Part shown: positions 95 through 53,323 of the stretch, piece after piece | Layout: each line of letters starts with the position of its first letter | Numbering within the stretch: the first letter of the stretch is position 1 | From: Desulfosudaceae bacterium | Lineage (GTDB): Bacteria; Desulfobacterota; Desulfobacteria; Desulfobacterales; Desulfosudaceae | Direction of reading: 5' to 3' | Length of the DNA: 64,000 nt | NCBI GenBank assembly: GCA_963674745.2 | Contig: CAXXDV010000001.1 | Location: 2,240,001-2,304,000 of the forward strand | The notes under the pieces: model-generated | Database searches by the model: none | Seen by the model: only the letters and a program-made list of their open reading frames with translations | What the model was told of the DNA's origin: nothing | Translations under genes and position numbers: made by a program

Positions 95-1974
95 TCAAAG
101 TTTAATTTTCTGATTGTTCGTATCAAAAGAGCAGGTCAGGATCAGCATATCGTCATCCCGCCGCGTCTTTGTTTCGTAGGGCAGCGTCTTAAACAGTTTT
201 TTCATGGCGGTGTTGGTCGGCTCGGTGTACGCCACCAGGCCACCGATACCGTTTGCTTTGGCCGCAATGGATAATTTTTTCAGAATGGTAGAGGCGATTT
301 TTTCCCCTGCCACTGCTTGCTGACGGAAAAAGCCACTTCGGCAACATTGCCGACGGATTCCAGCATATAAGCACCGATGCCGACGACCTCGCCGAATCCA
401 AAATCCCCGGTGATGGCCAGAATGGTGAGGTTTTTGATGTAGTCGATTTCCCACATCTCCTCGATATCATTTCTGAAAAAACAGGTTTTGTTCTGGAAAA
501 ACCGGGCCAGAACATCCTTTTTGTCCAGGTTGTAGAAATGTTCCTGAATACGGCGGTCATCAATCGGTTTGGCCGGACGGAATTTGATGGTCCGGTCATC
601 GATGGTTCGTGTCTCTTCCAGGCCGGCCGGGTAAACCCCGCGAAGGGCCTCCCCCAGTTTCTTCCCTGATGTCAACAGCCCCATTTTTTTGGCCTGTTCA
701 AACAGTTCCTCCCGGAAATCGGGATGCGCCAGGGTAATCATGGCCGTAGCCCGTTCCTGCAAGTTTTTCCCGAACAGGTTGACCGCACCGAATTCGCTGA
801 CCACATAAGTAGCGTCGCTCATGGGCACAACCACATTGCCGGTTAATCGTGGCAGGATACGGCTGCTTTTCTTGTCAACGGAAGTGCTGGGAATCAAGAG
901 GATGGATTTCCCGCCGGCCGAGGCGGTTCCGCGAACAAAGTCAAGAACGCTGGAAACACCGGCAAAATAATTATGGGGCAGCGCATCCACGGCCGCCTGA
1001 CCGGTCAGGTCCATTTCCCGGACCATGTTAACGGCCACCATTTTGTTGTGACGGGCGATTACCGCCGGGTCATTGACGTAATCGGCCGGAAAAAATTCAA
1101 TGGACGGGTTGTCATGGATAAATTCGTACAGGTTTTGTGTCCCCACCGCGTTGCTGGCCACAATTTTTCCTTCATTAAGACCTTTATGTCGGTTGGTGAT
1201 GACACCCCGGGAAACCAGGTCCATGATACCGTCGATAACGAACTGGGTATGTACGCCCAGGTCGTTTTTTTCTGAAAGCGCCAGCAAAATGGCCTTGGGT
1301 GTGGCACCCAATCCCAGTTGGAAGGTGGAACCGTCTTCGATCAGGTTGGCGACCAGTTTCGCGATTTTGTGAGCGGATTCGAACTCGGGGATGTCGGCGA
1401 TGGTCAGCAGTGGCTCCTCTTTTTCCACAATAAAATCAACATCATTTACATGGATGAAACTGTGGCCCAAAACCCGCGGCATCTCGGGGTTGACCTGGGC
1501 GATAACAATATCCGCCGAACGGGCGGCTGAAAGCCCCACATCGACTGAGATACCCAGGCTCATCCAGCCGAAGTCGTCCGGCGGGGATGTCTGAATCAGG
1601 GCGGCGTGAAGGGGGAGCTGTTTTTTACTGAACAGGCCGGCAACGGCTGACATATTAATAGGTGTGATAAACGGTTTGTTCGGCTCCAGGTGTCTGACGT
1701 CACCGGCACCCTGATAAACGTTCCGGATGTGAAAATTGTTGAGCCGGTTTTGATTGGCCAGCCGGGTGATGGGGGAGTTCTCCAGTCCCATCAGCCGGAC
1801 AATTTCCAGGTCGGAAAAATGGTCGGCATTTTTTACCAGGGTATTTACCAGGTGTTGCGGTTCACCGCAGGAAGAACCGATAAAAATCCGGCGGCCGGAT
1901 TTGAGCATGGCAATGGCTTCTTCGGCGGTCTTTTTTTTCCGGACGTATTCGTCGGGCCAGTAACTGGTTTGCAT
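95..1974 (-). CDS. Acetyl-CoA hydrolase/transferase fused to C-terminal GNAT acetyltransferase; apparent frameshift near 300
   Basis: GSSCGEPQ, FQLGLGATP, LGVHTQ and GGKSI-like motifs. The GNAT tail (AEVAFSVSKQWQGK) continues in another frame (KIASTILKKL...) across an A6 run. Confidence 0.8.
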
Positions 1975-2180
1975 GCGGCTGGTACTGTATTGTATGATTA
2001 GGTTAATGCGGCAGGTATGCCATTGATCATCCTGCCAGACTTCCGGACAGGTGTTCCGAAATTTTGTTTTATCATAACATGTGAATAGCTCGGGGAACAA
2101 CCTTTTTGTCCGTGATGATTTTAGCTTGACAGACTGTTTTTTTTATCTTAAAAGATAACGTTAACGATAAAAGACTGACA

Positions 2181-2256
2181 GCGGGCATAGCTCAGTTGGT
2201 AGAGTACAAGCTTCCCAAGCTTGGTGTCGCGAGTTCGAGTCTCGTTGCCCGCTCCA
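2181..2256 (+). tRNA. tRNA-Gly(CCC)
   Basis: GCGGGCATAGCTCAGTTGGTAGAG...CTT-CCC-AAG...GTTCGAGTC...GCTCCA cloverleaf with encoded CCA. Confidence 0.97.
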
Positions 2257-2342
2257 GGCATCGTATAACAAGCCTGTTGGCGGCGGCAGAGCAGTTTGAC
2301 TTAGGCGCTGGGTTTGATCGGAGACAGAAAGTTGTATCAGTG

Positions 2343-2369
2343 AAACGGGCAAAAGCCCGTTTTTTTGTT
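2343..2369 (+). terminator. Intrinsic terminator downstream of tRNA-Gly
   Basis: AAACGGGC-AAAA-GCCCGTTT followed by a T run. Confidence 0.7.
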
Positions 2370-2397
2370 TCATAAAAAGCGGCGTGGGGGGCAGTGA

Positions 2398-2937
2398 ATG
2401 GTGCCAACCGAGACACCGGCAGAGAAGAAGTCGCAGGCAGACGGTGGATTCCGGTTGTCAGAAAACAATCAGACGGTAAAAGAAACCATCTGGCGGTTGG
2501 CAGAACCGGTCTGTGAAGCCGAGGGCCTGGAGCTTGTATTTGTCGAGCTCCAGAGAGAAAGAAGCGGCCGTATCCTTCGTCTGTTTATTGACAAGGCAAC
2601 CGGCGTGACTCTGGACGATTGCGCCCGGATCAGCCGACAGGTAGACGCGCTTCTGGACGTTTATTGTGACGCCAGAAACGCCTATACACTGGAAGTCTCT
2701 TCGGCGGGTATCAACCGGCCTTTGGGGCGGCGGCATGATTATGAAAGGTTTAAAGGTAATGTTGTAAAGGTGAAGTTGCGAACGCCGATTGACGGCCGAA
2801 AGAATTTTAAGGGAACGTTGCTCGGCTTAGCCGATGATTTTGTCAGAATAAGAGTTGATAACAGGGAGTTCGCCATTCCATATAAAGGGATAGCGAAAGC
2901 ACAACTTGTTAATGACGATGGAGTCAAGGGATGGTAA
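2398..2937 (+). CDS. rimP: Ribosome maturation factor RimP
   Basis: LRLFIDK, TLDDC, YTLEVSSAGINRPL; directly upstream of nusA. Confidence 0.93.
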   Translation: MVPTETPAEKKSQADGGFRLSENNQTVKETIWRLAEPVCEAEGLELVFVELQRERSGRILRLFIDKATGVTLDDCARISRQVDALLDVYCDARNAYTLEVSSAGINRPLGRRHDYERFKGNVVKVKLRTPIDGRKNFKGTLLGLADDFVRIRVDNREFAIPYKGIAKAQLVNDDGVKGW

Positions 2938-4332
2938 TTCAGGATATTAAACGTGTTGTCGATCAGGTCAGTCGGGACAAAGGGATTGATCGCGACGTAC
3001 TTATCAAGGCGCTGGAAGAAGCATTGAAATCGGCTGCCCGCAAAAAGTTCGGAGCGGTGACCGACATAGAGACAATATATGATGAGAACACGGGTGAAAT
3101 AGAAGTCTTCCAGTTTAAAGAGGTGGTTGAAACGGTGACCGACCCGAGTCTCCAGATCAGCATCGAGGAAGGTCGGCAACTGGACCCGGAATGCGAAATC
3201 GGAGACAGCCTGGGCGTCAAAATGGATACCAGCAGTTTTGGAAGAATCGCCGCTCAATCTGCCAAACAGGTGATTATTCAGAAAATTAATGATGCTGAAA
3301 GAAATGTGGTCTATAAAAATTTTATTGACAAGGAAGGCGATATTATCAACGGCATCGTGCAGCGTATTGATCGGGGTAACGTTATTGTCAATATCGGTGA
3401 AGCCGAAGCCATCCTGCTTTCCAGGGAACAGATTCCCGGAGAGCATTTCCGCAGGGGTGACCGGTTGCGTGCCAATATTATGAAGGTTCATCAGGAGGCA
3501 CCGGGGCCTCAGATCATTTTGTCAAGGGCGCATCCGGATTTTGTGGTCAACCTTTTTAAGACTGAAGTGCCTGAAATCAGTGAAGGTATTATTACCATTA
3601 AAGCGGTCGTCAGAGAAGCCGGTGCCAGGACAAAGATCGCGGTCGTCTCCAATGATGTCGATATTGATCCGGTCGGGGCCTGTGTGGGTGTCAGGGGCAG
3701 TCGTATACAAAATGTCGTAAAAGAGCTGCGCGGGGAAAAAATAGACATTGTCTCCTGGAATATTGACCCGGCAAAATTCGTCTGCAATGCCCTTTCTCCG
3801 GCCCAGATTTCACGTGTGATTATTGATGAAGACAATAAAAGCATGGAGGTTATCGTCTCTGACGATACCCATTCTCAGGCCATTGGCCGACGGGGTCAGA
3901 ACGTCAAGCTGGCCTCAAAGTTGACCGGCTGGCACCTTGATGTGGTCGGTGAGTCTATATATAATAAAACAATGGAAAAAGGTTATGGTTCACTTTTGAA
4001 AATATCCGGAGTGGACGAGCACCTGGCCACGGCGATGTGTGAGATGGGCTTTTTTTTCAGCCGAGGAAGTCTGTAATGCCGATATCGACGACCTGATCGA
4101 AGTTGAAGGTATTGATGAGGAGACCGCGACGGTATTGATAAAAGATGCGGCCCAGGTGATTGAAGAGGCGAGACCCGACGAAGAAGAATCGTCCGAAACC
4201 GGCGGTGATGAGGAGTCGGACACGACGGAAGAAAAATCCGAGGCCGAATCCGGGGATGATGAGGTGTCGGACACGACGGAAGAAAAATCCGAGGCCGAAT
4301 CCGGGGATGACGAGCAGGAAATAAAGGAATAA
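2931..4332 (+). CDS. nusA: Transcription factor NusA; apparent frameshift in a T8 run near 4050
   Basis: FGRIAAQSAKQ, S1/KH motifs, GACVGVRGSRI, GQNVKLA; acidic C-terminal part continues in ORF 4039-4332. Confidence 0.93.
4207..4313 (+). repeat. 51-bp tandem duplication (17-aa acidic repeat) in the nusA tail
   Basis: GTCGGACACGACGGAAGAAAAATCCGAGGCCGAATCCGGGGATGA at 4215 and 4266. Confidence 0.9.
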
Positions 4333-23680: not shown

Positions 23681-23768
23681 AATATCCGGTTTGACAGCGA
23701 TACCGTTGACGGCGCCGATGTTAATCGTCGATGCCTGATGAAATGACACTTCAATGGGGAGGGAAAAC

Positions 23769-25472
23769 ATGGGAAATGAGCGTTTCTGGACCAAAGCCTA
23801 TGATGAGGGAGTGGGAGATCTTTCTCCGGATCAATGGGAAATCAGCTATGTAGATGCCGTTCGGCCGACTTTTTCAAGCCTCGGAGACAAGACCGCCTAC
23901 GCTTTCATGGGGACGCATATCAGCTTTTCCGATCTTGATCGTTATGCCAACCGGTTCGCGCGGATGCTGCTGGACAACGGGTTTCAAAAAGGCGACACGG
24001 TCGGTATTAACCTGCCCAATATCCCTGAATATGCCATTGCCTGGCTGGGCACACTTCGCGCCGGTTGCGTGGTTTCCGGTGTGTCCCCCCTGCTGTCGTC
24101 ACCGGAGATGAAACACCAGCTGGCCGACTCCAAAGCCAGGGGCGTGGTGACCCTGGACGCGATTTTTGCCGCCAGGGTGACGGAAATCGCCGATGAACTG
24201 CCGGATTTGAAACTGATCGTCGTGGCCGGCGTGGGCGGGTTCCTGTCGCCCGTAAAGCGGTTTTTAGGCAAGCGGCTGGGGAAAATTCCGACCGGTAAAA
24301 TAACGCCCCTTGCCGGCAAAACCGTCCTGAAGATCGAACCGGTCATTAAAAGCGCGACTTACAGTGACGCCGATCCCGGTGTAACGGTGACACCCGATGA
24401 CATCGCCTATATCCAGTATACCGGCGGCACCACCGGGCTTCCCAAGGGGGCGCAGTTGAGTCATCGCAACGTGGTGGCCGATCTGCTGATCGTTCAGCAC
24501 TGGCTGCACTGGGAAAAAGGACGGGGGCTGGCCCTGTCGGGATTCCCGTTTTTTCACATCGCCGGTCTGTTTTTCAATAAAAACTGTATTTACCTGGGCT
24601 GGACCCAGGTGCTGATTCCCAATCCGCGGGATACGGACCATATCTGCAAGGAAATAAAAAAATATCAGCCGACGGTACTGGTCAACGTGCCGTCTCTGTT
24701 TCAGATGCTGATCGCCAATCCCGGGTTTAAGACGCTGGACCATTCCGGCCTGGAGGCCTGTATCTCTGCGGCTTCTCCTTTTCCCGAGGAATCCCAGCGG
24801 CAACTGGAGCAGATCGTCGGCAAGGAAAAGCTGCTCGAGGTCTACGGTATGACCGAGACGGCTCCGCTGACCACCATGAATCCCGTTGACGGCCCCAAGA
24901 AACTGGGCCATATCGGCCTGCCCCTGCCCAATACGGACATCTGTTTAAAAAGCACCGAAACCGGCGAACCCGTTCCCATTGGTGAACCAGGTGAGATATG
25001 TGTCAAGGGGCCCCAGGTGATGGTGGGGTATTTCAATAAGCCCGAGGAGACCCAAAAAGTCTTTGATGCCGAAGGTTATCTGCATACCGGTGACGTGGCC
25101 GTTCAGGACGAAGACGGCTACCTGCGGATTGTCGATCGTACCAAGGATATGATCATCGTCAGCGGGTTCAAGGTATTTTCCCGCCGGGTGGAGGACCTCC
25201 TTTCCGAACATCCGGCCATCGAAATGATCGCCACCATCGGCCGTCCCAACCCCGACCGTCCCGGTTCGGAACTGGTCGAGGCCTATGTCAAACCCGTTGA
25301 GGGCCATCCTCTGGCTGCGGACAAGGACGCCCTGGAAAAGGAAATCGTCGCTTTTGCCAAGGAGAAGCTGTCTCCTTATGAAGTGCCCAAGCGGATTCAT
25401 GTCATGGATGAGCTGCCTCTGACGACCGTCGGCAAGGTGGACAAGAAGGTGTTGCGCAAACGCGAGGATTGA
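23769..25472 (+). CDS. Long-chain fatty acid--CoA ligase
   Basis: YTGGTTGLPKG, YGMTET, TGD, DRTKDMI. Confidence 0.92.
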   Translation: MGNERFWTKAYDEGVGDLSPDQWEISYVDAVRPTFSSLGDKTAYAFMGTHISFSDLDRYANRFARMLLDNGFQKGDTVGINLPNIPEYAIAWLGTLRAGCVVSGVSPLLSSPEMKHQLADSKARGVVTLDAIFAARVTEIADELPDLKLIVVAGVGGFLSPVKRFLGKRLGKIPTGKITPLAGKTVLKIEPVIKSATYSDADPGVTVTPDDIAYIQYTGGTTGLPKGAQLSHRNVVADLLIVQHWLHWEKGRGLALSGFPFFHIAGLFFNKNCIYLGWTQVLIPNPRDTDHICKEIKKYQPTVLVNVPSLFQMLIANPGFKTLDHSGLEACISAASPFPEESQRQLEQIVGKEKLLEVYGMTETAPLTTMNPVDGPKKLGHIGLPLPNTDICLKSTETGEPVPIGEPGEICVKGPQVMVGYFNKPEETQKVFDAEGYLHTGDVAVQDEDGYLRIVDRTKDMIIVSGFKVFSRRVEDLLSEHPAIEMIATIGRPNPDRPGSELVEAYVKPVEGHPLAADKDALEKEIVAFAKEKLSPYEVPKRIHVMDELPLTTVGKVDKKVLRKRED

Positions 25473-26565: not shown

Positions 26566-26693
26566 TTCCAACAATTCAGCGCAATAGGATCGCCAGGGCA
26601 CTCGGATTTTGAACAGCCGTGCTGAATTGTATATTAACCGACTTTAAGACAGTCGGAGGAAGCCCTGGCGCCCTTTGGCTGAAGACGTTATAT
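26566..26693 (+). repeat. attC1 (family A)
   Basis: TTCCAAC...GGATCGCCAGGGC...GCCCTGGCGCCC...GTTATAT. Confidence 0.9.
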
Positions 26694-26713
26694 TTTATGA
26701 AGGATATTTCTGA

Positions 26714-27226
26714 ATGGATAAGAAAAAATGTTTGATATGCTGTAGTGAAATAGATGTTCAGGCTAAAAAATGTCCTTTTTGTAAACACTGGCAAAATAAA
26801 ATTAGCCTGGTGATTTGGCATCCATTTTTTACAGTAGCGATATTGCTTGTTCTTTACCTTCTATTCCAACAATTCTTCATTGATACACTTGGCCCTGGTG
26901 AGGATTTTGCTCCGGTAAGAAGTGAGATTGTTTTAAAGGATTGTACTATGGAGTTCGGTGAATCCAAATGCGGGCAAACAGTGGTCATTTTAGGAATGAT
27001 TGAAAATAATAGCGATCTAAATTGGGAAAAACCAAATTTTGAAATAATTTTCTTTGACAAGGATAAAAATATAATTGATACCGAACAGGAGGAAAATTAC
27101 AGTTTTGTCCTACCATCAAAAGAAAAAGTCCCTTTTAAGGTATCGATTAGAAGAGAATTTCCGCAGGAACTTTATGACTCGTTTGAGATACGAATTGTAA
27201 CGGCCAAAGAAGAAGGCCACTATTAA
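26714..27226 (+). CDS. Cassette 2: zinc-ribbon + TM + FxLYD-like protein
   Basis: CxxC..CxxC, one TM segment, GMIENNS..IIFFDKD. Confidence 0.75.
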   Translation: MDKKKCLICCSEIDVQAKKCPFCKHWQNKISLVIWHPFFTVAILLVLYLLFQQFFIDTLGPGEDFAPVRSEIVLKDCTMEFGESKCGQTVVILGMIENNSDLNWEKPNFEIIFFDKDKNIIDTEQEENYSFVLPSKEKVPFKVSIRREFPQELYDSFEIRIVTAKEEGHY

Positions 27227-29164: not shown

Positions 29165-29287
29165 TTATAACAACACCATGCACTTGACTCGCAGGGGCGG
29201 GCTGCTTTTTAAGTATCCTGGTTTGGTGTTAACGTGGCTTTGTAAAAGGCACGTTTCCCTGCTCCCAAGTGACGGTGGACGTTATAT
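29165..29287 (+). repeat. attC5 (family C)
   Basis: TTATAAC...CACTTGACTCGCAGGG...CCTGCTCCCAAGTG...GTTATAT. Confidence 0.9.
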
Positions 29288-29307
29288 TTTATGAAGGATA
29301 TTTCTGA

Positions 29308-29820
29308 ATGGATAAGAAAAAATGTTTGATATGCTGTAGTGAAATAGATGTTCAGGCTAAAAAATGTCCTTTTTGTAAACACTGGCAAAATAAAATTAGC
29401 CTGGTGATTTGGCATCCATTTTTTACAGTAGCGATATTGCTTGTTCTTTACCTTCTATTCCAACAATTCTTCATTGATACACTTGGCCCTGGTGAGGATT
29501 TTGCTCCGGTAAGAAGTGAGATTGTTTTAAAGGATTGTACTATGGAGTTCGGTGAATCCAAATGCGGGCAAACAGTGGTCATTTTAGGAATGATTGAAAA
29601 TAATAGCGATCTAAATTGGGAAAAACCAAATTTTGAAATAATTTTCTTTGACAAGGATAAAAATATAATTGATACCGAACAGGAGGAAAATTACAGTTTT
29701 GTCCTACCATCAAAAGAAAAAGTCCCTTTTAAGGTATCGATTAGAAGAGAATTTCCGCAGGAACTTTATGACTCGTTTGAGATACGAATTGTAACGGCCA
29801 AAGAAGAAGGCCACTATTAA
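29308..29820 (+). CDS. Cassette 6: second copy of cassette 2
   Basis: Protein identical to 26714-27226. Confidence 0.85.
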   Translation: MDKKKCLICCSEIDVQAKKCPFCKHWQNKISLVIWHPFFTVAILLVLYLLFQQFFIDTLGPGEDFAPVRSEIVLKDCTMEFGESKCGQTVVILGMIENNSDLNWEKPNFEIIFFDKDKNIIDTEQEENYSFVLPSKEKVPFKVSIRREFPQELYDSFEIRIVTAKEEGHY

Positions 29821-38324: not shown

Positions 38325-38936
38325 ATGTCAAAATGGTATATTTTGCCCGGAATGGGCGCAACTTCAGCGATGTATGATTCGCTTAAGCCCGAAATTGATT
38401 TTGAGGTCAACTTTTTAGATTGGCCTGAATATAAGGGTGAAACAACCTACATGGAGGTTGCAGCACGGATTATAACTGAAAACGATATATCAGACGGAGA
38501 TATTGTTGGAGGATCATCCCTGGGGGGAATGGTCGCTCTCGAAATTGCACAGATATTGCGGCCAAGAACAACTGTGCTTCTTGGGAGTGCTATAAATAAG
38601 CGAGAAGTTCAGAGTGTCCTTTCTATCTTGTCCCCTTTGGCAGCTGTAACCCCAATATCATTGATTCAATTTTTGGTGGGGAAACACAAAAGTTTAATAG
38701 CGAAAATGTTTTCCAATTGCGATTCTGGATTTATTCGGGCCATGTGCTTGCATTTACGTTCATGGCCAGGCTATTCCGGCCCGAATGAGAACATAATTCG
38801 GCTTCATGGCCGGAAAGACCATGTAATTCCGTGTCCAGCAACTGGCGCAGAGATTATTGATGGTGCTGGCCATTTATTGGCAATGACACATCCTAAAGAA
38901 ACTGGGCAGTTTTTAAAAAATGTACACAGCACTTAA
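38325..38936 (+). CDS. Cassette 17: alpha/beta hydrolase
   Basis: LPGMG, GSSLGG, HGRKD, AGH. Confidence 0.85.
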   Translation: MSKWYILPGMGATSAMYDSLKPEIDFEVNFLDWPEYKGETTYMEVAARIITENDISDGDIVGGSSLGGMVALEIAQILRPRTTVLLGSAINKREVQSVLSILSPLAAVTPISLIQFLVGKHKSLIAKMFSNCDSGFIRAMCLHLRSWPGYSGPNENIIRLHGRKDHVIPCPATGAEIIDGAGHLLAMTHPKETGQFLKNVHST

Positions 38937-39059
38937 CCATTCAGCGCAATAGGATCGCCAGGGCACCCGGGTTTTGAACAGCCATGCTGAGTTGAAATTT
39001 TAACCATCTTTAAGTCAGTCGGAGGAAGCCCTGGCGCCCTTTGGCTGAAGACGTTCGGC
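38931..39059 (+). repeat. attC17 (family A)
   Basis: ACTTAAC-CATTCAGCGC...GTTCGGC. Confidence 0.9.
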
Positions 39060-40508: not shown

Positions 40509-41093
40509 ATGAAAAAGCTCATATCAATATTTCCAGCCATTTTAATATTAATTATTATTGGAATGTCGGCTTACAATGTCAAAACAGACCCAGATTATAA
40601 AACCTACGATGTTTTGAATGAAGCGATTGAAAAAGGTGACATTTCGACTGTAAAAACGATTATTGGCAAAGACAAAAAATTTCTTTCGTTTAGTAGGCCG
40701 GCACTTAACGAAGCTGTTTTTAATTGCCAACTTGAGATAGCTAAATACTTGATAAAAGCGGGCGCAAAGGTAAATCATAAATATGGGCGTCATAATTCGA
40801 CTGCTCTTCATGTAGCAGCATATAATTGTGATAATGCCGAAATCATAAATTTATTGATCAGGAACGGTGCTATAGTTGATATAAAAAATGATCTATTTGA
40901 AACACCGCTTATGCTCGCATCCGAAAATGGAAACATCAAAGCGATGAAGGTGCTTATAGATAATGGTGCAAATGTTAATGCAAGGAGTAGAGCATACGGA
41001 ATCCCTGTAGATTATGCGAAAAGGAATAGCTCCTTAAACGCAATTGATTTTTTGAAACAAAAAGGGGCAAAAACAATCAATAAAAATTTTTAA
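40509..41093 (+). CDS. Cassette 20: exported ankyrin-repeat protein
   Basis: TALHVAA, TPLMLA, GANVN. Confidence 0.88.
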   Translation: MKKLISIFPAILILIIIGMSAYNVKTDPDYKTYDVLNEAIEKGDISTVKTIIGKDKKFLSFSRPALNEAVFNCQLEIAKYLIKAGAKVNHKYGRHNSTALHVAAYNCDNAEIINLLIRNGAIVDIKNDLFETPLMLASENGNIKAMKVLIDNGANVNARSRAYGIPVDYAKRNSSLNAIDFLKQKGAKTINKNF

Positions 41094-41094
41094 G

Positions 41095-41155
41095 ACATAA
41101 CGAACAAGGATAGATCGTGCGAGGTAACGAGCCACGATCTTATCCGGGGTTGAAC
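41095..41155 (-). repeat. attC20: short attC oriented opposite to the array, belonging to the recombinase/IS91 unit
   Basis: Minus strand GTTCAAC-CCCGG-ATAAGATC...GATCTAT-CCTTGTTC-GTT. The unpaired base is in the arm next to GTTCAAC; the L'-R' spacer is long (8 nt). Confidence 0.7.
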
Positions 41156-41349
41156 AAGCCCGCTGAACTTTCACTATAAGAAAATATTTAATTTGGGATA
41201 GAGGGCAAAAGGCGTGAACCTGGAAAGTGCTTTTTTTGCAGGACGCAGGGATCCCTTAACCTGAAGGCAGGTTTTAAAAAGACAATTTTGTTCATGGGTG
41301 TGATTGCCTCCTGTTTTTTGTTGTGCCGGGTCATAACCGGGTCAGCGTT

Positions 41350-42405
41350 TTATCCCGGCTTCCAGGCCGCGTAACGGAACCCTTTGATGACCATCGGGAT
41401 GTGGCAACGGGGGCACTTTACAGCAGGTCTCGGGCGTTGGGTTTTTATTCCAAGCCGGACATGCAGGATCAATTGCACCAGTTGCAGCGTCTTTTTGGCG
41501 TTGCCATGAAGAAACCCGTAATCGCGCACCCTGCGGAAGCCCTTGGGCAGGACATGCTGCAGAATGAGCTGGAGAAAATCTTCTCCGTCAAGCGTACGAT
41601 AACGGGTATGGCCGGTGCCGCTTTCAGTGTACCTGAAGGTGACCCGGCCATTTTCATTGGCCACAATATTCTTTTCACTGATTACACCCCGGTATAAGTA
41701 CCGGGACAGGTACTTTATGACCGGGAGCCCGTTACCGACCTTTTCACAATCCACGACCCATTTTGCAGGTGTATTTTTAGGCACATAAAGGCCGGCTTTT
41801 CTTAAAGCGGCCAGAAAACGGGCACGAAAGACCGTGGCCAGGTTAAACTCATTAAACAGATATTTTCCTTTTTTCTTTTTCCATTGTCGCCGGCGCTTAT
41901 CAATCCCGCCGCCGGGCACCACCACATGGATATGAGGATGATAATCCAGACTTCGGGTGTTCGTATGCAGAACCATGGTCAAACCGATTTCTGCGCCCAT
42001 TTGCTTCGGGTTTAAGCCAAAATCCTTGAGTGTTTCGGACACGCAGGAAAAGAAGATTGAATATACATCCCGCTGATTGTTCCAGGCCAGCGGACGGAGT
42101 TCAAACGGCAGCGTAAACGTCGCCATAAAGTAAAGCACCGGAAGCAGTTTGTCTTGCTGCCGGTCGATCCACTGAGTGGCCTCATGGTTCTGGCATTTGG
42201 GGCAGCTCCGATGTCCGCAGGACATCGGGTGCCATTTCCCATGATGGCAGGCAGGACACTGAACGTAAAATTCTCCGGAAGCAGGTGTGCGACATCTGCG
42301 TATGGCACGCAAGGATTTAAGATGCCCCGGCAAGGCTTTTTGGCCGTGCTTTTCCATAAACCTGTCAGCGTACTGATCAATAATTGATGCCAGTTCCATA
42401 ATCAT
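41350..42405 (-). CDS. IS91-family rolling-circle (HUH/Y2) transposase
   Basis: Cxx[10 protein letters not shown] zinc motif, [26 protein letters not shown]. Confidence 0.92.
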
Positions 42406-43306
42406 ACCTTTCTAAAATCAACATGGATTGTATTTATCAGCTCATTTAAGACAGTCAGGCTGTCCTGCTCCGTTATATCGCTCAGATGCGTATAACGTGC
42501 TGTTGTGGAGGGACTGGCATGGCCAAGCAGGGCCTGGATGTGACGGAGGCTTAAGCCGCGTTCAAGCAGGTGGGTGGCAAAACTGTGACGCAGGGAGTGA
42601 ATGGATACTTTTTTTTAATGCCGCATTCGGCGACGACCACTTTCATGGCTCTCTGACAGCCGCCTTTATCCATAAAGTTGGTGGCCGCCCGGATGGTCTC
42701 TAAAGACCCCTTGCAATTGGGAAATAACAAATTAGGATGACGATGCTTACGCCAAAGCTCCCGCAGGCCCGTCAAAGTCAGGTCCGGCAATGGCAGCATT
42801 CGGTCCTTATGACCTTTACCCCGGCGGATATGGACCTTTTTGCGCTCAGCATCAATGTCCCCGATCTGAAGGGACAACGTCTCTTCCAGACGCAATCCCA
42901 TGGAATAGGTTGTCAGCAGAAATACCCGGTAACGCAATTTCTTGGTTTTGCCGATGATCCGTTCAACCTCGGAAACGGTAAGAATGTCCGGTATGGTTTT
43001 GACTTTCGGCGGTTTGACGATCTTGATCCATTCCCAGTCCTTTCCGAGCACATACCGCCAGAAGAACTGCAAGCCGTTACGGTCAACCCTGACCGTGCTC
43101 CAGGAATGGCTATCCACCAGCTGAGAGAAATAACCTTCCAATTGTTCCGGACGCAAATGGTCGGGACAACAATCAAAATGGTTACGAATGCGGCGGACTG
43201 AACGGGCATAGAGATCAATGGTCCTCGGACTCATACCCTGAAGCTTGAGCAACTCCAGGTGCCTCTCATAAAGCCGGTTGAAACGTTTTACTTCCGAATC
43301 GTTCAT
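42402..43306 (-). CDS. Tyrosine recombinase with SAM-like N-terminus; full length requires a -1 frameshift at 42608-42614
   Basis: YSMGLR and GKGHKDR in frame 0; [21 protein letters not shown] in the -1 frame; stop overlaps the transposase start (ATGA). Confidence 0.88.
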
Positions 43307-43393
43307 GGTATACTCCTTTCATTGGGGGTGCCCGTAATTGAGCACGTATTGGAGTATACCTTGTTTTTTATTAATCCGCCGCGTAGCGGCTTC

Positions 43394-43521
43394 GTTCAAC
43401 CATTCAGCGCAAGAGGATCGCCAGGGCACTCGGGCTTTGAACAGCCGTACTGAATTGAACATTAACCGACTTTAAGTCAGTCAGAGAAGGCCCTGGCGCC
43501 CTTTGGCTGAAGACGTTATGA
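43394..43521 (+). repeat. attC21 (family A; probably the original attC of cassette 20)
   Basis: GTTCAAC-CATTCAGCGCAAGAGG...GTTATGA. Confidence 0.9.
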
Positions 43522-43534
43522 AATATAGCCTGAT

Positions 43535-44707
43535 ATGAAAGCCATCAAACCATTATCAATCATGCTTTTTTGTCTTATTGTTGTTTCCTGCGCCCCCAAT
43601 TCTTCTAATATAAGGGCAACAGATAATCAGATGGGCATGGATAACCATTCTGTTAATTATAGTTCGGGTGATATGTTAAAAATTGAAAATTGTACCAAAG
43701 AAGTCAATACAGAATATGACCTAATAGAGCAGGCGTTTGATTGTTATGAAGAGTTCGATCAAAAGACAATCAATGACATTACTTCCAACTACTCCATCTC
43801 TATTTTTATCAATACGTTACAAGACGATAATTACGAGTATCGTGCAGGAGCTGCAAGGATTCTTGGATTATTGAAATATTCAAAATCAGTTCCAGATTTA
43901 TTATACATGGCAATAAACGACCCAAATCCATATTGTAAGGTAAGCGCAACTTTAGCCCTCTATCAAATTGATGAGGAGCCGGCAAAAAACGATGCTTTTT
44001 CTAATCTGATAAAGGACTTTACAAATCCAGAAACAGAATCGGTTTACAGAGGCATCATCGCAGCCCTCATGGGGGATATAGGTGATCAAAATGCAACCCC
44101 TTATTTACTCACAGCTTTAAAAGATCCCAAAACAGATCCATTTGTACTCGATTTTGTAATCTTCGCTTTGGGAAAAATTAAAGGTGAAAATATACCTGCT
44201 GCACTTAATGAATTCATTTTAAGGCATGATATTGAACCATATATTCGAAAAGATGCCATAATGGCGTTAGGCTCAATTGGTGATGATGATTCAATCTCGT
44301 TCTTATCTGATATCTTGAATTCAAAAGATTACAATTATTCTATTAGGGCAGATGCGGCTTCAGCATTAGGTTACGAATCAAACCATAGCCAAAAGGCCAT
44401 TTCAGCCTTAATTAATGCCACAAAGGATGAAAATAAAGGTGTCCGTTTTTTTGCTGTTTGTGCCTTGGGAAAAATACCTGATGAGCGTGCAACGAAGGGT
44501 TTAATTAATGCTCTGAACGATGATTGTGACCGTGTTCGAGTTACGGCAGTCAATTTTTTAGGATTAACCGGTGATGAATCATCTATACCAGCGTTAACAA
44601 GGTTATCAAAAGATGATGCGATAATTTATGGTCAGCCAATTAAAGAACACGTTCAAAAAGCGATTGAGCAAATTAAGGAAAAAGCTATAAAGGATAAATC
44701 AAAATAA
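43535..44707 (+). CDS. Cassette 22: HEAT/PBS-lyase repeat lipoprotein
   Basis: VVSC lipobox; repeated R..AA.ALG.I. Confidence 0.85.
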   Translation: MKAIKPLSIMLFCLIVVSCAPNSSNIRATDNQMGMDNHSVNYSSGDMLKIENCTKEVNTEYDLIEQAFDCYEEFDQKTINDITSNYSISIFINTLQDDNYEYRAGAARILGLLKYSKSVPDLLYMAINDPNPYCKVSATLALYQIDEEPAKNDAFSNLIKDFTNPETESVYRGIIAALMGDIGDQNATPYLLTALKDPKTDPFVLDFVIFALGKIKGENIPAALNEFILRHDIEPYIRKDAIMALGSIGDDDSISFLSDILNSKDYNYSIRADAASALGYESNHSQKAISALINATKDENKGVRFFAVCALGKIPDERATKGLINALNDDCDRVRVTAVNFLGLTGDESSIPALTRLSKDDAIIYGQPIKEHVQKAIEQIKEKAIKDKSK

Positions 44708-50357: not shown

Positions 50358-51341
50358 TTAATGTTCTTCAGGTTCTTCTTCGGCAGCTTCATCTGCCGCG
50401 TCATCACTTTCCGGTTGATCCTCATCCTGATCCGGATCAACAGCATCATCGTCTTGCGGCAAATCCATCTCCTGATCCTCGACGGCCGGCTCATCGGCGG
50501 ATTCCGTCGTCTCTGTTGCGGATGGGGCTAAATCAGATTCGTCGGTTTGAGCATCGGCCTCTGGGCCCGGCGCCTCAAAACCCGTTTCATCATCTTTCGG
50601 AATCTCCACGCCCAGCTGACGGGCAAATGTGCCATCCGCTGCTTCCGTGATGTCCTGACGTTCTCCCTGCTCAGATGAAACCGCCGTTTCCGGTTCCGGG
50701 CCGTTTCCATCCGGTTGGTCGGCTGCAGTCGTGTCATCATCCGGTTGAGCATCGCCCGACTGATCCGGCTGATCTTCATGGCCGGCAGCCACCTCTTCGG
50801 CTATACCGACCTGGCCGAATTCCTGAATTTCTTTTAAGGTCGGCATGTCACTTAAGCTTTTCAGGTTGAAGATTTCGAGAAACTTACGGGTGGTGGCGTA
50901 AATCAACGGCCGGCCGGGGATTTCTTTTTTGCCCAGAATACGAATCAGTTTTCGTTCCAGAAGGTTACGGATAATCGCGCCGGAATCAACCCCCCTGATG
51001 CGTTCCACATCCGCCCGGATGATCGGCTGGTGGTAGGCGATAATGGCCAGGGTCTCCAGGGCGGCTTTGCTGAGCCGGACAGGAGCGGGCTTGAGCATTT
51101 TTTTGATCCACTCCTTGTAGTCGGGCCGTGTTCTGAACTGAAAGCCACCGGCAACTTCGTTGAGCAGGAAGCCGCCCTGGCGGGCTTCGTGTTCCGTGAT
51201 CAGTTCATTGAGGGCCTCCCGGATTTCTTTTGCTTCGGCATCGGGAATGATCTGTTTGAACGTCCGTATATCAATGGGACTGTCGGCCACAAACAGCAGG
51301 CTTTCTAAAATGTTTTTCAAATCGTTGTGCATTGGCTTCAC
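50358..51341 (-). CDS. scpB: SMC-Scp complex subunit ScpB with long acidic tail
   Basis: LESLLF, LSKAALETLAIIAYHQP, RGVDS, GRPLIYATT. Confidence 0.93.
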   Translation of the reverse strand: MKPMHNDLKNILESLLFVADSPIDIRTFKQIIPDAEAKEIREALNELITEHEARQGGFLLNEVAGGFQFRTRPDYKEWIKKMLKPAPVRLSKAALETLAIIAYHQPIIRADVERIRGVDSGAIIRNLLERKLIRILGKKEIPGRPLIYATTRKFLEIFNLKSLSDMPTLKEIQEFGQVGIAEEVAAGHEDQPDQSGDAQPDDDTTAADQPDGNGPEPETAVSSEQGERQDITEAADGTFARQLGVEIPKDDETGFEAPGPEADAQTDESDLAPSATETTESADEPAVEDQEMDLPQDDDAVDPDQDEDQPESDDAADEAAEEEPEEH

Positions 51342-51348
51342 ATTTTTT

Positions 51349-51480
51349 ATGGCTTCGTAAAAAGCTCAGTATCTGTGTTGCGCTGCATCCTTCGGAATTT
51401 CACGTACTTCTATGTACGCGCCTCCTCAGGATTTGCGCGCCCCAATCTTAAGCTGGGGCTTGGACTTTTTACTTTGCCAT
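51349..51480. mobile_element. 132-bp MITE-like element between scpA and scpB
   Basis: TIRs ATGGCTTCGTAAAAAG / CTTTTTACTTTGCCAT (13/16 match); internal hairpins. Confidence 0.7.
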
Positions 51481-51495
51481 CCCAATTTTGACTTT

Positions 51496-52260
51496 TTAAA
51501 GGTAGAACAACCGAATAACCCCGCTCTCCACATGCTGCCGGATCGCAACCAGTTGCAGTTTGACCATTTCCAGCAGGGCCAGGAAAATGGCGATCACCTC
51601 GCTTTTTTGTTTAACATTTTCAAGGAGTTCAGAAAAAGTCAGGGATTTTTTCTGCTCCAGCTTTTCCACGATTTCAGTTATTTTGTCTTTTATCGATATT
51701 TCGTCTCTGGCCAGTATCATTTTTGAAGATGCGGGAAGCTTGTCAAGTACTTTCTGAAAGGCGTCAATCAGTTCGAACAAACCGACCTCTATCATGTCGG
51801 CGTCCGCATCCTGTCGGAAAGCTTTTTTATCGATGGTTCGGATAAAGGTGTCTTCGTTGAGTATGGCCCTGTTGCCGAGGTCTTCCGCGGCGGATTTGAT
51901 TTGCATGTACTCTTCCAGCCTTTTGGTGATTTCAGCGCGCGGATCTTCTTCGTCCTCCCCTTCGGCTGTGTGGGACGGCAGAAGGGTACGGGATTTGATA
52001 TTGGTCAGGATGGACGCCATGTATAGGAAATCGCCGGCCAGGTTGATGTTCAGCATTTTCATCCATTCGATATATTCCAGAAACTGCCCGGTGATTCTGG
52101 CTATGGGGATGTCATAAATGCTGACTTCATTTTTTTTGATCAGGTATACCAGAAGGTCCATGGGGCCTTCAAAAATTTCGGTTATGACCTTGTATGGTTC
52201 GCTGATTTCCCGTGTTTCTTCGGTTTTGTCCGTGTCTGCCATGGCACCGGTAATATTCAA
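51496..52260 (-). CDS. scpA: Segregation/condensation protein A
   Basis: FEGPMDLL, IKSRTLLP, FLALLEM; start uncertain. Confidence 0.93.
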   Translation of the reverse strand: MNITGAMADTDKTEETREISEPYKVITEIFEGPMDLLVYLIKKNEVSIYDIPIARITGQFLEYIEWMKMLNINLAGDFLYMASILTNIKSRTLLPSHTAEGEDEEDPRAEITKRLEEYMQIKSAAEDLGNRAILNEDTFIRTIDKKAFRQDADADMIEVGLFELIDAFQKVLDKLPASSKMILARDEISIKDKITEIVEKLEQKKSLTFSELLENVKQKSEVIAIFLALLEMVKLQLVAIRQHVESGVIRLFYL

Positions 52261-52280
52261 TAAGGTTGTTTGCTGCCGGA

Positions 52281-53267
52281 TTAAATCCCGATTGCCGATC
52301 GCACCTGGTCCATTGTCTGTTGCGCCACCCGGCGTGCCCGGGCGGTGCCGTCATTCATGATATCATCAACCAGTTGCGGCCGATCAACAAAATAAGCGCG
52401 TTTTTCCTGAATGGGCGCCAGACCCGTTATCAGGCTTTCGGCCAGTTTTTTCTTGCATTCAATGCATCCGATGCCGGCTTTGCGGCAATCCGCATTAATG
52501 GCGGCAACCGTAGCGTCATCCGTATAAAGCTTATGGAAAGAATATACGTTGCACACCTCCGGATCGCCGGGATCTGTTTTTCGGGCCCGCTGGGGATCGG
52601 TAATCATTTTTTTGGTGGTTCCCAGAATGGCCTCCGGGGTGTCAGCCAGATAAATGGCATTTTCATAGCTTTTGCTCATTTTCCGCCGATCCGTTCCAAG
52701 AATTCTTGGTGTTTCCGTCAGCTTGGCCTGAGGTTCCGGAAATACCGGGCCATAAAAATGATTAAAACGACGGGCAATTTCCCGGGTGATCTCGACATGG
52801 GGCACCTGGTCTTCTCCCACAGGCACGAGGTCGGCTTTATACATAATGATATCAGCAGCCTGGAGAACAGGGTAGCCGAGAAACCCGAAAGTGGAAATAT
52901 CTTTTCCGGTTAACTGTGCCATCTGATCCTTGTAGGTCGGATTCCGTTCCAGCCAACCCAATGGCGTCAGCATGGACAGGAACAGAAAAAGCTCGGCATG
53001 TTCTTTGACCTGTGACTGGACGAACAGGGTGGCTTTTTCAGGTGACAGCCCCACGCTCAGCCAGTCAACGGCCATCATCCGGGAAAATTCGGATAGTTTT
53101 CCTGTGGTTTCATAATCGGTGGTCAGGGCATGCCAGTCGGCAATAAAGAAAAAACAGTCAAATTCATCCTGAAGACGGACCCAGTTCGCCAACGCCCCGT
53201 GAAGATTACCCAGATGCAGCGGCCCGGTGGGACGCATGCCGCTTAAGATTCTTTTTTTTGTTGCCAT
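52281..53267 (-). CDS. trpS: Tryptophan--tRNA ligase
   Basis: SGMRPTG.LHLGN, YPVLQAADI, KMSKS. Confidence 0.96.
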   Translation of the reverse strand: MATKKRILSGMRPTGPLHLGNLHGALANWVRLQDEFDCFFFIADWHALTTDYETTGKLSEFSRMMAVDWLSVGLSPEKATLFVQSQVKEHAELFLFLSMLTPLGWLERNPTYKDQMAQLTGKDISTFGFLGYPVLQAADIIMYKADLVPVGEDQVPHVEITREIARRFNHFYGPVFPEPQAKLTETPRILGTDRRKMSKSYENAIYLADTPEAILGTTKKMITDPQRARKTDPGDPEVCNVYSFHKLYTDDATVAAINADCRKAGIGCIECKKKLAESLITGLAPIQEKRAYFVDRPQLVDDIMNDGTARARRVAQQTMDQVRSAIGI

Positions 53268-53323
53268 TAAACACTCCCGACAAAACAATCGTTCAATTCT
53301 GTTATTCAAAAATGAGGGATTCG

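Follow-up and report, generated by a model that had tools for sequence, protein, structure and literature searches.

An IS91-family element with a tyrosine recombinase gene at integron attC sites of a Desulfosudaceae genome, and a possible route of its integration

ISfinder lists members of the IS91 family of insertion sequences (IS) that have an integrase gene upstream, such as ISShvi3, ISSod25, ISAzo26 and others. The same gene pair is present in the element described here, which occupies 2299 bp on the minus strand (positions 41102-43400) of a 64,000-nucleotide stretch from a Desulfosudaceae bacterium (assembly GCA_963674745.2, contig CAXXDV010000001.1, positions 2,240,001-2,304,000; this whole stretch is called the window below) and interrupts one of the attC sites of an integron cassette array. 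The element belongs to a subgroup of the IS91 family in which a Xer/IntI-like tyrosine recombinase gene stands ahead of the transposase gene tnpA, and it is very probably an autonomous insertion sequence of 2.3 kb that is specific for the R'' box of attC sites. Recombinase/IS91 pairs are also annotated on plasmids (H1 and H3). In open PMC papers and bioRxiv, no description of the target rule, the end structure, the junction hairpin or the frameshift of IS91-integrase elements was found, and the literature found there on attC targeting is limited to a passing remark on ISShvi3.

According to one paper on the family (PMC13181058), terIS consists of one subterminal palindrome beside the cleavage tetranucleotide, and the targets are GTTC for IS1294 and GTCC for IS1294b. 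The same paper states that only the bottom-strand single-stranded circle of IS91 is inserted, that TnpA alone does this, and that Orf121, encoded by an overlapping upstream gene, modulates the process; the stop codon of this accessory open reading frame (ORF) overlaps the start of tnpA, as does that of the recombinase gene of the present element. The accessory gene differs from that of IS91 in that it encodes a tyrosine recombinase. Three copies of IS1294 on enterobacterial plasmids, which share a unit of 1688 bp, served as the reference for the ends. On the top strand this unit reads ^GAAC-CACG-palindrome (GCAGCC..GGCTGC) ... AATTTCCTATACGT^, where the caret marks a junction or a cut here and below, and the flanks of its right end are GAAC, GAAC and CAAG. 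As these copies show GAAC and CAAG on the top strand, the published GTTC/CTTG notation refers to the bottom strand. The three copies also have an annotated ORF of 62 amino acids that ends 10 nt before tnpA (loci L097-L099, positions 655-843), in a position like that of IS91 orf121 and of the element recombinase.

The IS1111-attC group of the IS110 family and the group IIC-attC introns also insert at a fixed place in attC. The introns insert opposite to the cassettes (PMC9229058). The enzymes of these two groups, a DEDD transposase in the first and a ribozyme with a reverse transcriptase in the second, are unrelated to the HUH transposase and the recombinase of the present element, which differs from both groups also by having an attC-like site of its own.

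Integron cassettes and IntI form the other close comparison. The boundaries of the element are of the G^TT...G^TT type, its GTTRRRY and RYYYAAC boxes pair, a bulge lies opposite the cut, the site spans about 61 nt, and the recombinase is of the Xer/IntI branch. The differences are that the recombinase is without the IntI segment, that there are no clear L boxes, that the insertion is inverted and at R'', and that the element brings its own enzymes. New here are the obligate -1 shift in the recombinase gene, the covariation of two 7-mers, the combination of an IS1294-like left end with a non-IS91 target, and a recombinase without the IntI segment.

The mobile unit and its attC target

The transposase (41350-42405, minus strand) is an IS91-family Y2 HUH enzyme of 351 amino acids with the motifs HPHIH and YLSRY, and it is intact in all four copies of the element in the genome. 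Its profile scores are 4.6e-48 for Y2_Tnp and 8.3e-28 for Zn_Tnp_IS91 in Pfam, and 388 bits for NF033538 in NCBIfam, where the cut-off is 125. Besides this transposase family, the element shares with the IS91 family the absence of a target duplication and an oriIS-like motif of the ATTTCC-TATA type.

The host array extends from about 26.5 to 49.2 kb of the window, and its sites are read on the plus strand, with R'' (..AAC) first and ..GCCGCC^GTTAT last. The element follows an ankyrin-repeat cassette (ORF 40509-41093), at the end of which lies the R'' box ACATAAC of the interrupted host attC (41095-41101, plus strand). The rest of this attC, from L'' to L' and R' (GTTATGA at 43515-43521), occupies 43401-43521 on the plus strand and is followed by a HEAT-repeat cassette ORF (43535-44707). 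On the plus strand the junctions read GACATAAC^GAACAAGGATAG on the left side and GCCGCGTAGCGGCTTCGTTCAAC^CATTCAGCGCAAGAGG on the right side or, at other reading lengths, GACATAAC^GAACAAGG and GGCTTCGTTCAAC^CATTCAGCG. Excision of the unit in silico regenerates an attC of family A, as the initial annotation had claimed, with 111 of 128 identical columns relative to the attC at 26566-26693 and 110 of 128 relative to that at 38932-39059. This model of the empty site is an uninterrupted attC without duplicated host bases, so that a target-site duplication is absent, and the AAC at the right end of the element is part of its own conserved 7-mer. The R'' and R' boxes of the host attC, which the initial annotation supposed to stay usable, pair at six of seven positions before the insertion and at three of seven after it. 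Since AAC is found both at 41099-41101 and at 43398-43400, the boundary of the element can slide by up to 3 nt, and the unit 41101-43399 of the initial annotation is the AA^C cut of the 2299-bp unit 41102-43400.

The four copies of the 2299-bp element in the genome are 97-98% identical and share exact ends. Each of them lies directly behind the AAC of an attC R'' box and is antisense to the cassettes, and the attCs concerned belong to three families. The identity of the copies begins at xTAAC^GAAC and stops at GTTCAAC^ in all four cases; on the left the copies adjoin different cassettes and on the right attCs of the three families, in one relative orientation. Because the insertion takes place 3' of the R'' AAC on the cassette-sense strand, the genes of the element always point against the cassettes. 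Solo hairpins and mini-elements were not found in the genome, which has only the four full copies and one 16-nt match to the left end, at C3:1001330.

The region might be read differently, either as ordinary forward cassettes with antisense genes or as a decayed element with a recombinase pseudogene created by a 1-nt frameshift. The plus strand does show a short hairpin after the ankyrin gene and a long attC after two genes, like two cassettes, and the recombinase ORF is interrupted. However, the identity of the four copies extends through the short hairpin and does not reach into the long host attC, which is of three families, and this excludes the ordinary forward cassette. The pair of readings as a whole is very improbable; the observations that bear on decay are given with the recombinase.

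Related loci, ends and the terminal hairpin

A pattern search of contigs, with one genome per species, gave 281 confirmed relatives, of which 80 loci were fetched. The relatives are mostly from Desulfobacterota, and they are found also in Gammaproteobacteria, Chloroflexota, Omnitrophota, Lentisphaerota and Bacteroidota. Conservation in these 80 loci stops at the same ends as in the four genomic copies.

The left end of the relatives is conserved as GTTG[A/G]AC-GAAGCCGC-loop-GCGGC; conservation stops exactly there, and several contigs begin at that base. The corresponding end in the window reads GTT-GAAC-GAA-GCCGC-TAC-GCGGC on the minus strand. It starts with the terminal 7-mer GTTGAAC (43394-43400, minus strand), which is present in nearly all loci and contains the terIS-type tetranucleotide GAAC (GGAC in relatives). 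The GC-rich subterminal palindrome GCCGC-GTA-GCGGC (43378-43390) is terIS-like and is kept in related loci as GCCGC-loop-GCGGC. This layout of GAAC or GGAC, 3 nt and a GC palindrome matches the terIS of IS1294.

The right end of the relatives consists of GATATTTCCTTATA, a variable stretch, CCGGGCTTGT[T/C]CAAC, a hairpin GGATAAGATYGTGG..CACRATCTATCC, and CCTT[A/G]TTC. In the window, the oriIS-like motif AAATATTTTCTTATAG (41174-41192, minus strand), with CTATAAGAAAA at 41174-41184, lies about 70-90 nt inside the right end and is comparable to the IS1294 right end AATTTCCTATACGT^; 42 of 53 related loci have the motif at a distance of 50-160 nt from that end, and there is no conserved GAAC or CAAG behind it. 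Thus, whereas oriIS of the IS91 family is placed at the very end, by the GAAC or CAAG target, the oriIS-like motif of the element is internal, and outside it stands an extra hairpin module of about 60 nt that has no counterpart in IS1294. On the plus strand this terminal module (41102-41148, assigned to the minus strand) is composed of a GAACAA spacer, an arm GGATAGATCGTG at 41108-41119, a loop, an arm CACGATCT[T]ATCC at 41133-41145, and GGG, and the extra T of this short hairpin is at 41140/41141. Next to the module is the internal 7-mer GTTCAAC (41149-41155, minus strand), which is complementary to the left terminal 7-mer and represents the R''-like box of the element's own site. The two ends form imperfect inverted repeats, GTTGAAC-AAGCCCGCT (41149-41164, plus strand) and GTTGAAC-GAAGCCGCT (minus strand, from 43400). 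The palindrome, the 41174-41184 motif, the imperfect inverted ends, the hairpin and the junctions that had been named in the initial annotation are all found in their places.

The two 7-mers covary. GTTGAAC is combined with GTTCAAC in 34 copies and GTTGGAC with GTCCAAC in 16, so that 50 of 55 copies are concordant and 5 are discordant. Boxes of the R'' and R' types (RYYYAAC and GTTRRRY) are both present and pair with each other, one being the internal GTTCAAC and the other the junction G^TTGAAC, and in a circle the two 7-mers would close a 7-bp box around the hairpin. In the alignment of the hairpin 527 of 528 cells (99.8%) are paired on the bottom (plus) strand, and double changes are found at 3 of 12 pairs. 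At one pair, seven sequences, possibly of shared ancestry, have G.T on the bottom strand (C and A on the top strand) and none has the reverse kind, which is a hint that the bottom strand folds. On that strand the element's own site has its cut at the 5' box (GTTCAA^C or GTTCAAC^) and a bulged T on the 3' arm, which is the polarity of an attC bottom strand. The site measures about 61 nt and has a single bulged T, which is on the canonical arm; nothing resembling an L box was seen in it. Complementary 7-mers, GTTCAAC and GTTGAAC, do surround a short bulged hairpin, and the cut falls in the box where the bottom strand of attC is cut, as had been proposed. The description of the unit as an inverted integron cassette holds for the 7-mers and the hairpin, both of which are attC-like, and does not hold for the L boxes, which are not recognisable; for this reason "integron cassette" denotes a resemblance and not a membership.

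The flanks of the relatives repeat the arrangement in the window. The right flank begins with G (51/51), T (49/51) and T (51/51), followed by A in 28, G in 12, C in 10 and T in 1, then by G in 25 or T in 23, G in 37, and C in 23 or T in 17, which is GTTRRRY-like on the element strand; GTT[A/G/C] is present in 49 of 51 loci. At -2 the left flank carries T in 67 of 72 loci and at -1 in 52 of 72; an L-box-like pattern follows at a greater distance. An inverted repeat that abuts the junction is found in the left flank of 26 of 69 loci at p<=0.01, compared with 0 of 41 right-flank controls, and the duplex-energy test of the left flank is significant (p<=0.05) in 35 of 66 loci, compared with 2 of 37 controls. 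Both local tests are conservative, as short attCs and degenerate R' boxes escape them. They replaced, with the right flank as the control, earlier tests that needed an exact AAC-GTT closure and were too strict or too noisy. The earlier hairpin tests had given 22 of 46 loci by minimum free energy, 33 of 72 by constrained energy, where no shuffle was as low, and 20 of 71 by anchored arm alignment at p<=0.01. Among 27 test-negative loci that were inspected, several proved to have real attC-like hairpins whose R' boxes are degenerate, and in several others the flank has no such hairpin.

In an attC the extra bases mark the R''/L'' arm, so that the orientation of these sites can be read from the bulges. 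Of the 26 significant repeats, 22 have their extra bases on the junction-side arm and 2 on the other arm, and the arms are equal in 2; the junction-side arm is therefore the R''/L'' arm of attC. In the 1.5-kb flanks (n=81), antisense ORFs dominate in 63 cases and sense ORFs in 7, and 11 are ambiguous. The alignment of homologous flanks, which the initial annotation had suggested, thus gives shared ends, attC-like left flanks and one orientation. A distribution of the homologues over mostly non-attC sites or over both orientations is contradicted by the bulge side (22 vs 2) and by the flanking ORFs (63 vs 7). The unit is mobile, docked at the R'' AAC and antisense to the array in four of four genomic copies and in relatives from many phyla.

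Further features were noticed at the left ends of three related loci. In L077 (positions 1-60) the left flank is made of tandem GGGTT(T/C)GTT repeats and has no attC. In L089 (positions 3300-3420) a second right-end hairpin of different sequence directly precedes the left end (CCTTGTTC^GTTGGAC), so that either two units are arranged head to tail or part of another family member has been left there; insertion therefore takes place behind element-type hairpins as well as behind host attCs. In L032 (positions 3350-3400) an 18-nt direct duplication, GAGTAGAGGCGCTTGTT, immediately precedes the left junction and might be the footprint of an earlier event.

The genome has three true intI genes, all of which score above the TIGR02249 cut-off and have their arrays elsewhere than in the window. 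The attCs adjoining these genes are divergent from intI and have the same sense as the plus-strand sites of the window, and thus the plus strand is the cassette top strand. No integrase gene is found beside the window array, which is flanked by housekeeping genes and is an attC-site cluster without an integron-integrase (CALIN). Its neighbours are an AMP-ligase-like gene (23754-25472) on one side and scpB/scpA/trpS-like genes (50358-53309) on the other. At least four attC families are mixed within the array (26500-49200), and a 300-nt direct repeat of 97% identity (26663-26962 and 29257-29556), which begins inside attC ends, represents a duplicated cassette start.

Cumulative GC skew places the origin of replication near C1:1.5 Mb and the terminus near C3:1.35 Mb, and by the same measure the attC bottom strand is the lagging-strand template in two of six arrays. 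The host top strand is on the lagging-strand template in the window copy, in copy c4 and, weakly, in copy c3, and it is not in copy c2. Replication asymmetry as the sole cause of the orientation rule was rejected, since copy c2 breaks the pattern.

The recombinase and its reading frame

The 0-frame ORF of the tyrosine recombinase (42551-43306, minus strand) encodes 251 amino acids with a SAM-like N-domain, Arg I and the Lys, and without HxxR, the His and the Tyr. It matches Phage_int_SAM_4 and Phage_integrase in Pfam. Its best match in NCBIfam is the integron integrase model TIGR02249, with 89 bits against a cut-off of 265; the enzyme is a non-IntI recombinase.

The part that is missing from this ORF lies in the -1 frame (42402-42608, minus strand), where 68 codons and a TGA hold GHAS, ARYTHL and the box II/Tyr part. 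A run of eight A residues followed by G (42608-42616, minus strand) includes the slippery heptamer A_AAA_AAG at 42608-42614, and a -1 shift is needed there in all four copies of the genome. The site reads ATT AAA AAA AAG in each of them and corresponds to the T8 run at 42609-42616 on the plus strand. The TGA of the -1 frame overlaps the ATG of the transposase as ATGA (42402-42405), and only the shifted frame does so. The two genes had been described as translationally coupled; this is correct for the frameshifted recombinase and incorrect for the 251-residue 0-frame ORF. As the start of the transposase overlaps the stop of the shifted frame only, translation of the transposase may depend on the shift too.

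The shift is a property of the family. Among 84 recombinase copies analysed at the DNA level, 62 need a -1 shift, 2 need a +1 shift and none is in frame, while 17 were left unresolved by the pattern and 3 run off the contig; the 17 show the same-looking 0-frame tails. The slippery site across the family is A_AAA_AAG or A_AAA_AAA (A_AAA_AAR). In 69 of 78 copies an open -1 frame of 68-70 codons is present, each time with HxxRH (69 of 69), and over the same 17 codons the mean pairwise identity is 0.87 in the -1 frame and 0.47 in the 0 frame. The length of 251 amino acids is the called length in nearly all of the 120 best homologues (64-98% identity), and gene callers label this product as a complete "XerD/integrase". 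Nine of ten homologues inspected end in the 0-frame tail; the tenth, P0099, rejoins the frame further on and has lost HxxR.

These observations speak against a decayed element: all 64 readable copies need a shift and none is in frame, the 0-frame product has the same length in nearly all of the best homologues, the -1 frame is open and conserved, and the transposase is intact in all four genomic copies. It is unlikely that the A-run is a systematic assembly error across many independent assemblies. A relative on a Photobacterium plasmid (L100, positions 1100-3600), with a transposase identity of 44%, has an uninterrupted recombinase of 297 amino acids and no A-run; its ends have the same architecture, the hairpin persists although its stem differs in sequence, and an IS4-family element follows closely downstream. 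Since the -1 frame is conserved and this distant relative is uninterrupted, the full-length, shifted recombinase appears to be the functional protein, and the recoding site to have been acquired by the clade.

Judged from the nucleotide sequence, the recoding could take place in translation, by programmed -1 ribosomal frameshifting, or in transcription, by slippage on the A8-A9 run; a stimulatory structure was not found at the site. Frameshifting by -1 at A_AAA_AAG is known from dnaX and from the IS3 and IS1 families. In those cases, as here, the same slippery heptamer gives a short 0-frame product and a longer shifted product; the difference is that here the shift splits a tyrosine recombinase ahead of its catalytic HxxR..Y part.

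Possible routes of integration

The most far-reaching reading takes the element for a hybrid of rolling-circle transposon and integron cassette, in which the HUH transposase would make a single-stranded circle, the circle junction would fold into a mimic of attC, and the non-IntI recombinase, rationed by a programmed frameshift that would also gate the translation of the transposase, would act on the top strand of the host attC. We give this reading as a whole a probability of roughly 0.3. The preferred course of integration might be described as follows. The HUH transposase would copy out the bottom strand of the element as a single-stranded circle, as for IS91. At the circle junction the covarying 7-mers would pair around the hairpin, producing a fold that resembles attC and has the cut site at its 5' foot. 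The element's own recombinase, scarce owing to the frameshift, would then carry out a strand exchange between the AAC/GTT triplet of this fold and the corresponding place in a host attC. The host partner may be the folded top strand of attC or the double-stranded R'' core, and replication would then fix the insertion.

The central step of this scheme, that integration of the transposase-made single-stranded circle is performed by the element's own recombinase and not by the transposase, has in our estimate a little less than an even chance. The recombinase is favoured because the target is of the substrate class of its nearest relatives, because the boundaries of the unit are cassette-like rather than IS91-like, and because the enzyme is kept catalytically complete. 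It is favoured also by the position of the oriIS-like motif: a canonical ori nick there, 70-90 nt from the right end, would separate the element from its hairpin, which in fact is always carried along.

Several observations weigh against this scheme. The hairpin tests are passed by only about half of the flanks. At least one insertion, in L016 (positions 3250-3410), is not in an attC; the element stands in the cassette that follows a textbook attC (GCGGTT^GTTGGGC), about 60 nt past it, at GTATA^GTTCGTA, apparently as a secondary-site insertion. The terminal hairpin is without recognisable L boxes. The recombinase lacks a 21-residue IntI-specific segment (ALxxKYPxAxxxxxWQxVFP) that is present in two IntI proteins of the same genome. 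This segment reads the extrahelical bases of the folded attC, and in its absence an IntI-like handling of single strands by the recombinase is not assured. The host strand to be cut, the top strand at R'', has the extra bases on the cut arm, which is the opposite of the element's own site and of the canonical attC bottom strand. The junction sequence fits an AA^C cut by a tyrosine recombinase and an AAC^ cut by the transposase equally well. The Logan contigs of public runs break at the ends of the element and contain neither the circle junction nor the empty site, which is uninformative either way; the one joint in these contigs that leads back is the neighbouring upstream attC, which is similar to the downstream attC. 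The precedent of IS91, whose circle is inserted by TnpA alone, with no more than a modulating role for the upstream ORF (PMC13181058), also points away from the recombinase.

The main alternative, somewhat less probable, is that the HUH transposase does everything. It would cut 3' of xAAC on the bottom strand at both ends, make the single-stranded circle and insert it 3' of the AAC at the foot of the folded attC; the terminal hairpin would then be the palindrome of oriIS, the 7-mers an IS608-like DNA guide, and the recombinase an accessory protein for targeting or regulation, like Orf121 of IS91. The absence of a target duplication and the lack of the IntI-specific segment in the recombinase are in agreement with such a mechanism, and the tetranucleotide at the ter end stands beside the subterminal palindrome exactly as in IS1294. 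The GAAC and GGAC of the left end mirror the GTTC specificity of IS1294 and the GTCC specificity of IS1294b that are given in PMC13181058, and, according to the same paper, the insertion of the IS91 bottom-strand circle is achieved by TnpA alone. Moreover, 40 of 51 loci have on the bottom strand a T or a C as the fourth base of the target, which would pair with the G of a GTTG guide.

The target and the cut positions are more difficult to reconcile with the transposase acting alone. On the top strand, the IS91 family targets GAAC or CAAG, which stand behind oriIS in all three IS1294 copies, whereas the element targets GTTN, or more fully GTT(R)(K)G(Y), in the R'' box of attC and keeps a strict orientation relative to attC. 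A ter cut in the manner of IS1294 would fall at GTTC^AAC, 3 bases inside the junction, and the flank at the other end would be RYYY, unlike any target of the IS91 family. The oriIS-like motif is internal and not terminal. Finally, 69 of 78 copies retain a catalytically complete recombinase under recoding control, and an accessory role alone would hardly account for this.

The host integrase might also mobilise the unit as a gene cassette, with the hairpin serving as attC, so that the enzymes of the element would not be needed for integration. Three intI genes above the curated cut-off are present in the genome, and two copies of the element are in arrays beside intI; the ends obey the G|TT...G|TT rule, and the hairpin of about 61 nt has GTTRRRY-type boxes and a bulged T on the canonical arm. 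The canonical IntI reaction, however, uses bottom strands, takes place at R' or mostly at attI, and places cassettes in the sense orientation, whereas the element is at R'' and antisense (4/4 copies; 22 vs 2 for the bulge side; 63 vs 7 for the ORFs). As the host site and the element site are not mirror images, that reaction with bottom strands at R' cannot give the observed product. There is no intI beside the window array or the c3 site, and the conservation of the hairpin across phyla with very different attCs and IntIs points to a cognate protein encoded by the element. Mobilisation by host IntI is thus improbable, though less so than the forward-cassette and decay readings discussed above.

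In many bacteria the principal reservoir of exchangeable genes is the integron array, and attC-homing elements are able to split, silence, relocate or rearrange its cassettes. With every insertion of the present element one attC becomes two hybrid sites, and two outward-facing genes that run against the array are added. The frameshift of the recombinase may be taken for decay when such elements are annotated, and with this recoding site the known examples of recoding come to include a tyrosine recombinase controlled by a frameshift. The element gives a direct way to ask what the tyrosine recombinase does in the IS91-integrase subgroup. The exact attC rule of a widespread IS91-type element ties rolling-circle transposition to integron recombination, two processes that have so far been studied apart. 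If the hybrid reading is true, there would be a second, IntI-independent enzyme system for the recombination of single-stranded attC, and the covarying 7-mers, GAAC or GGAC with GTTC or GTCC, would suggest that DNA-DNA pairing sets the tetranucleotide specificity of the IS91 family.

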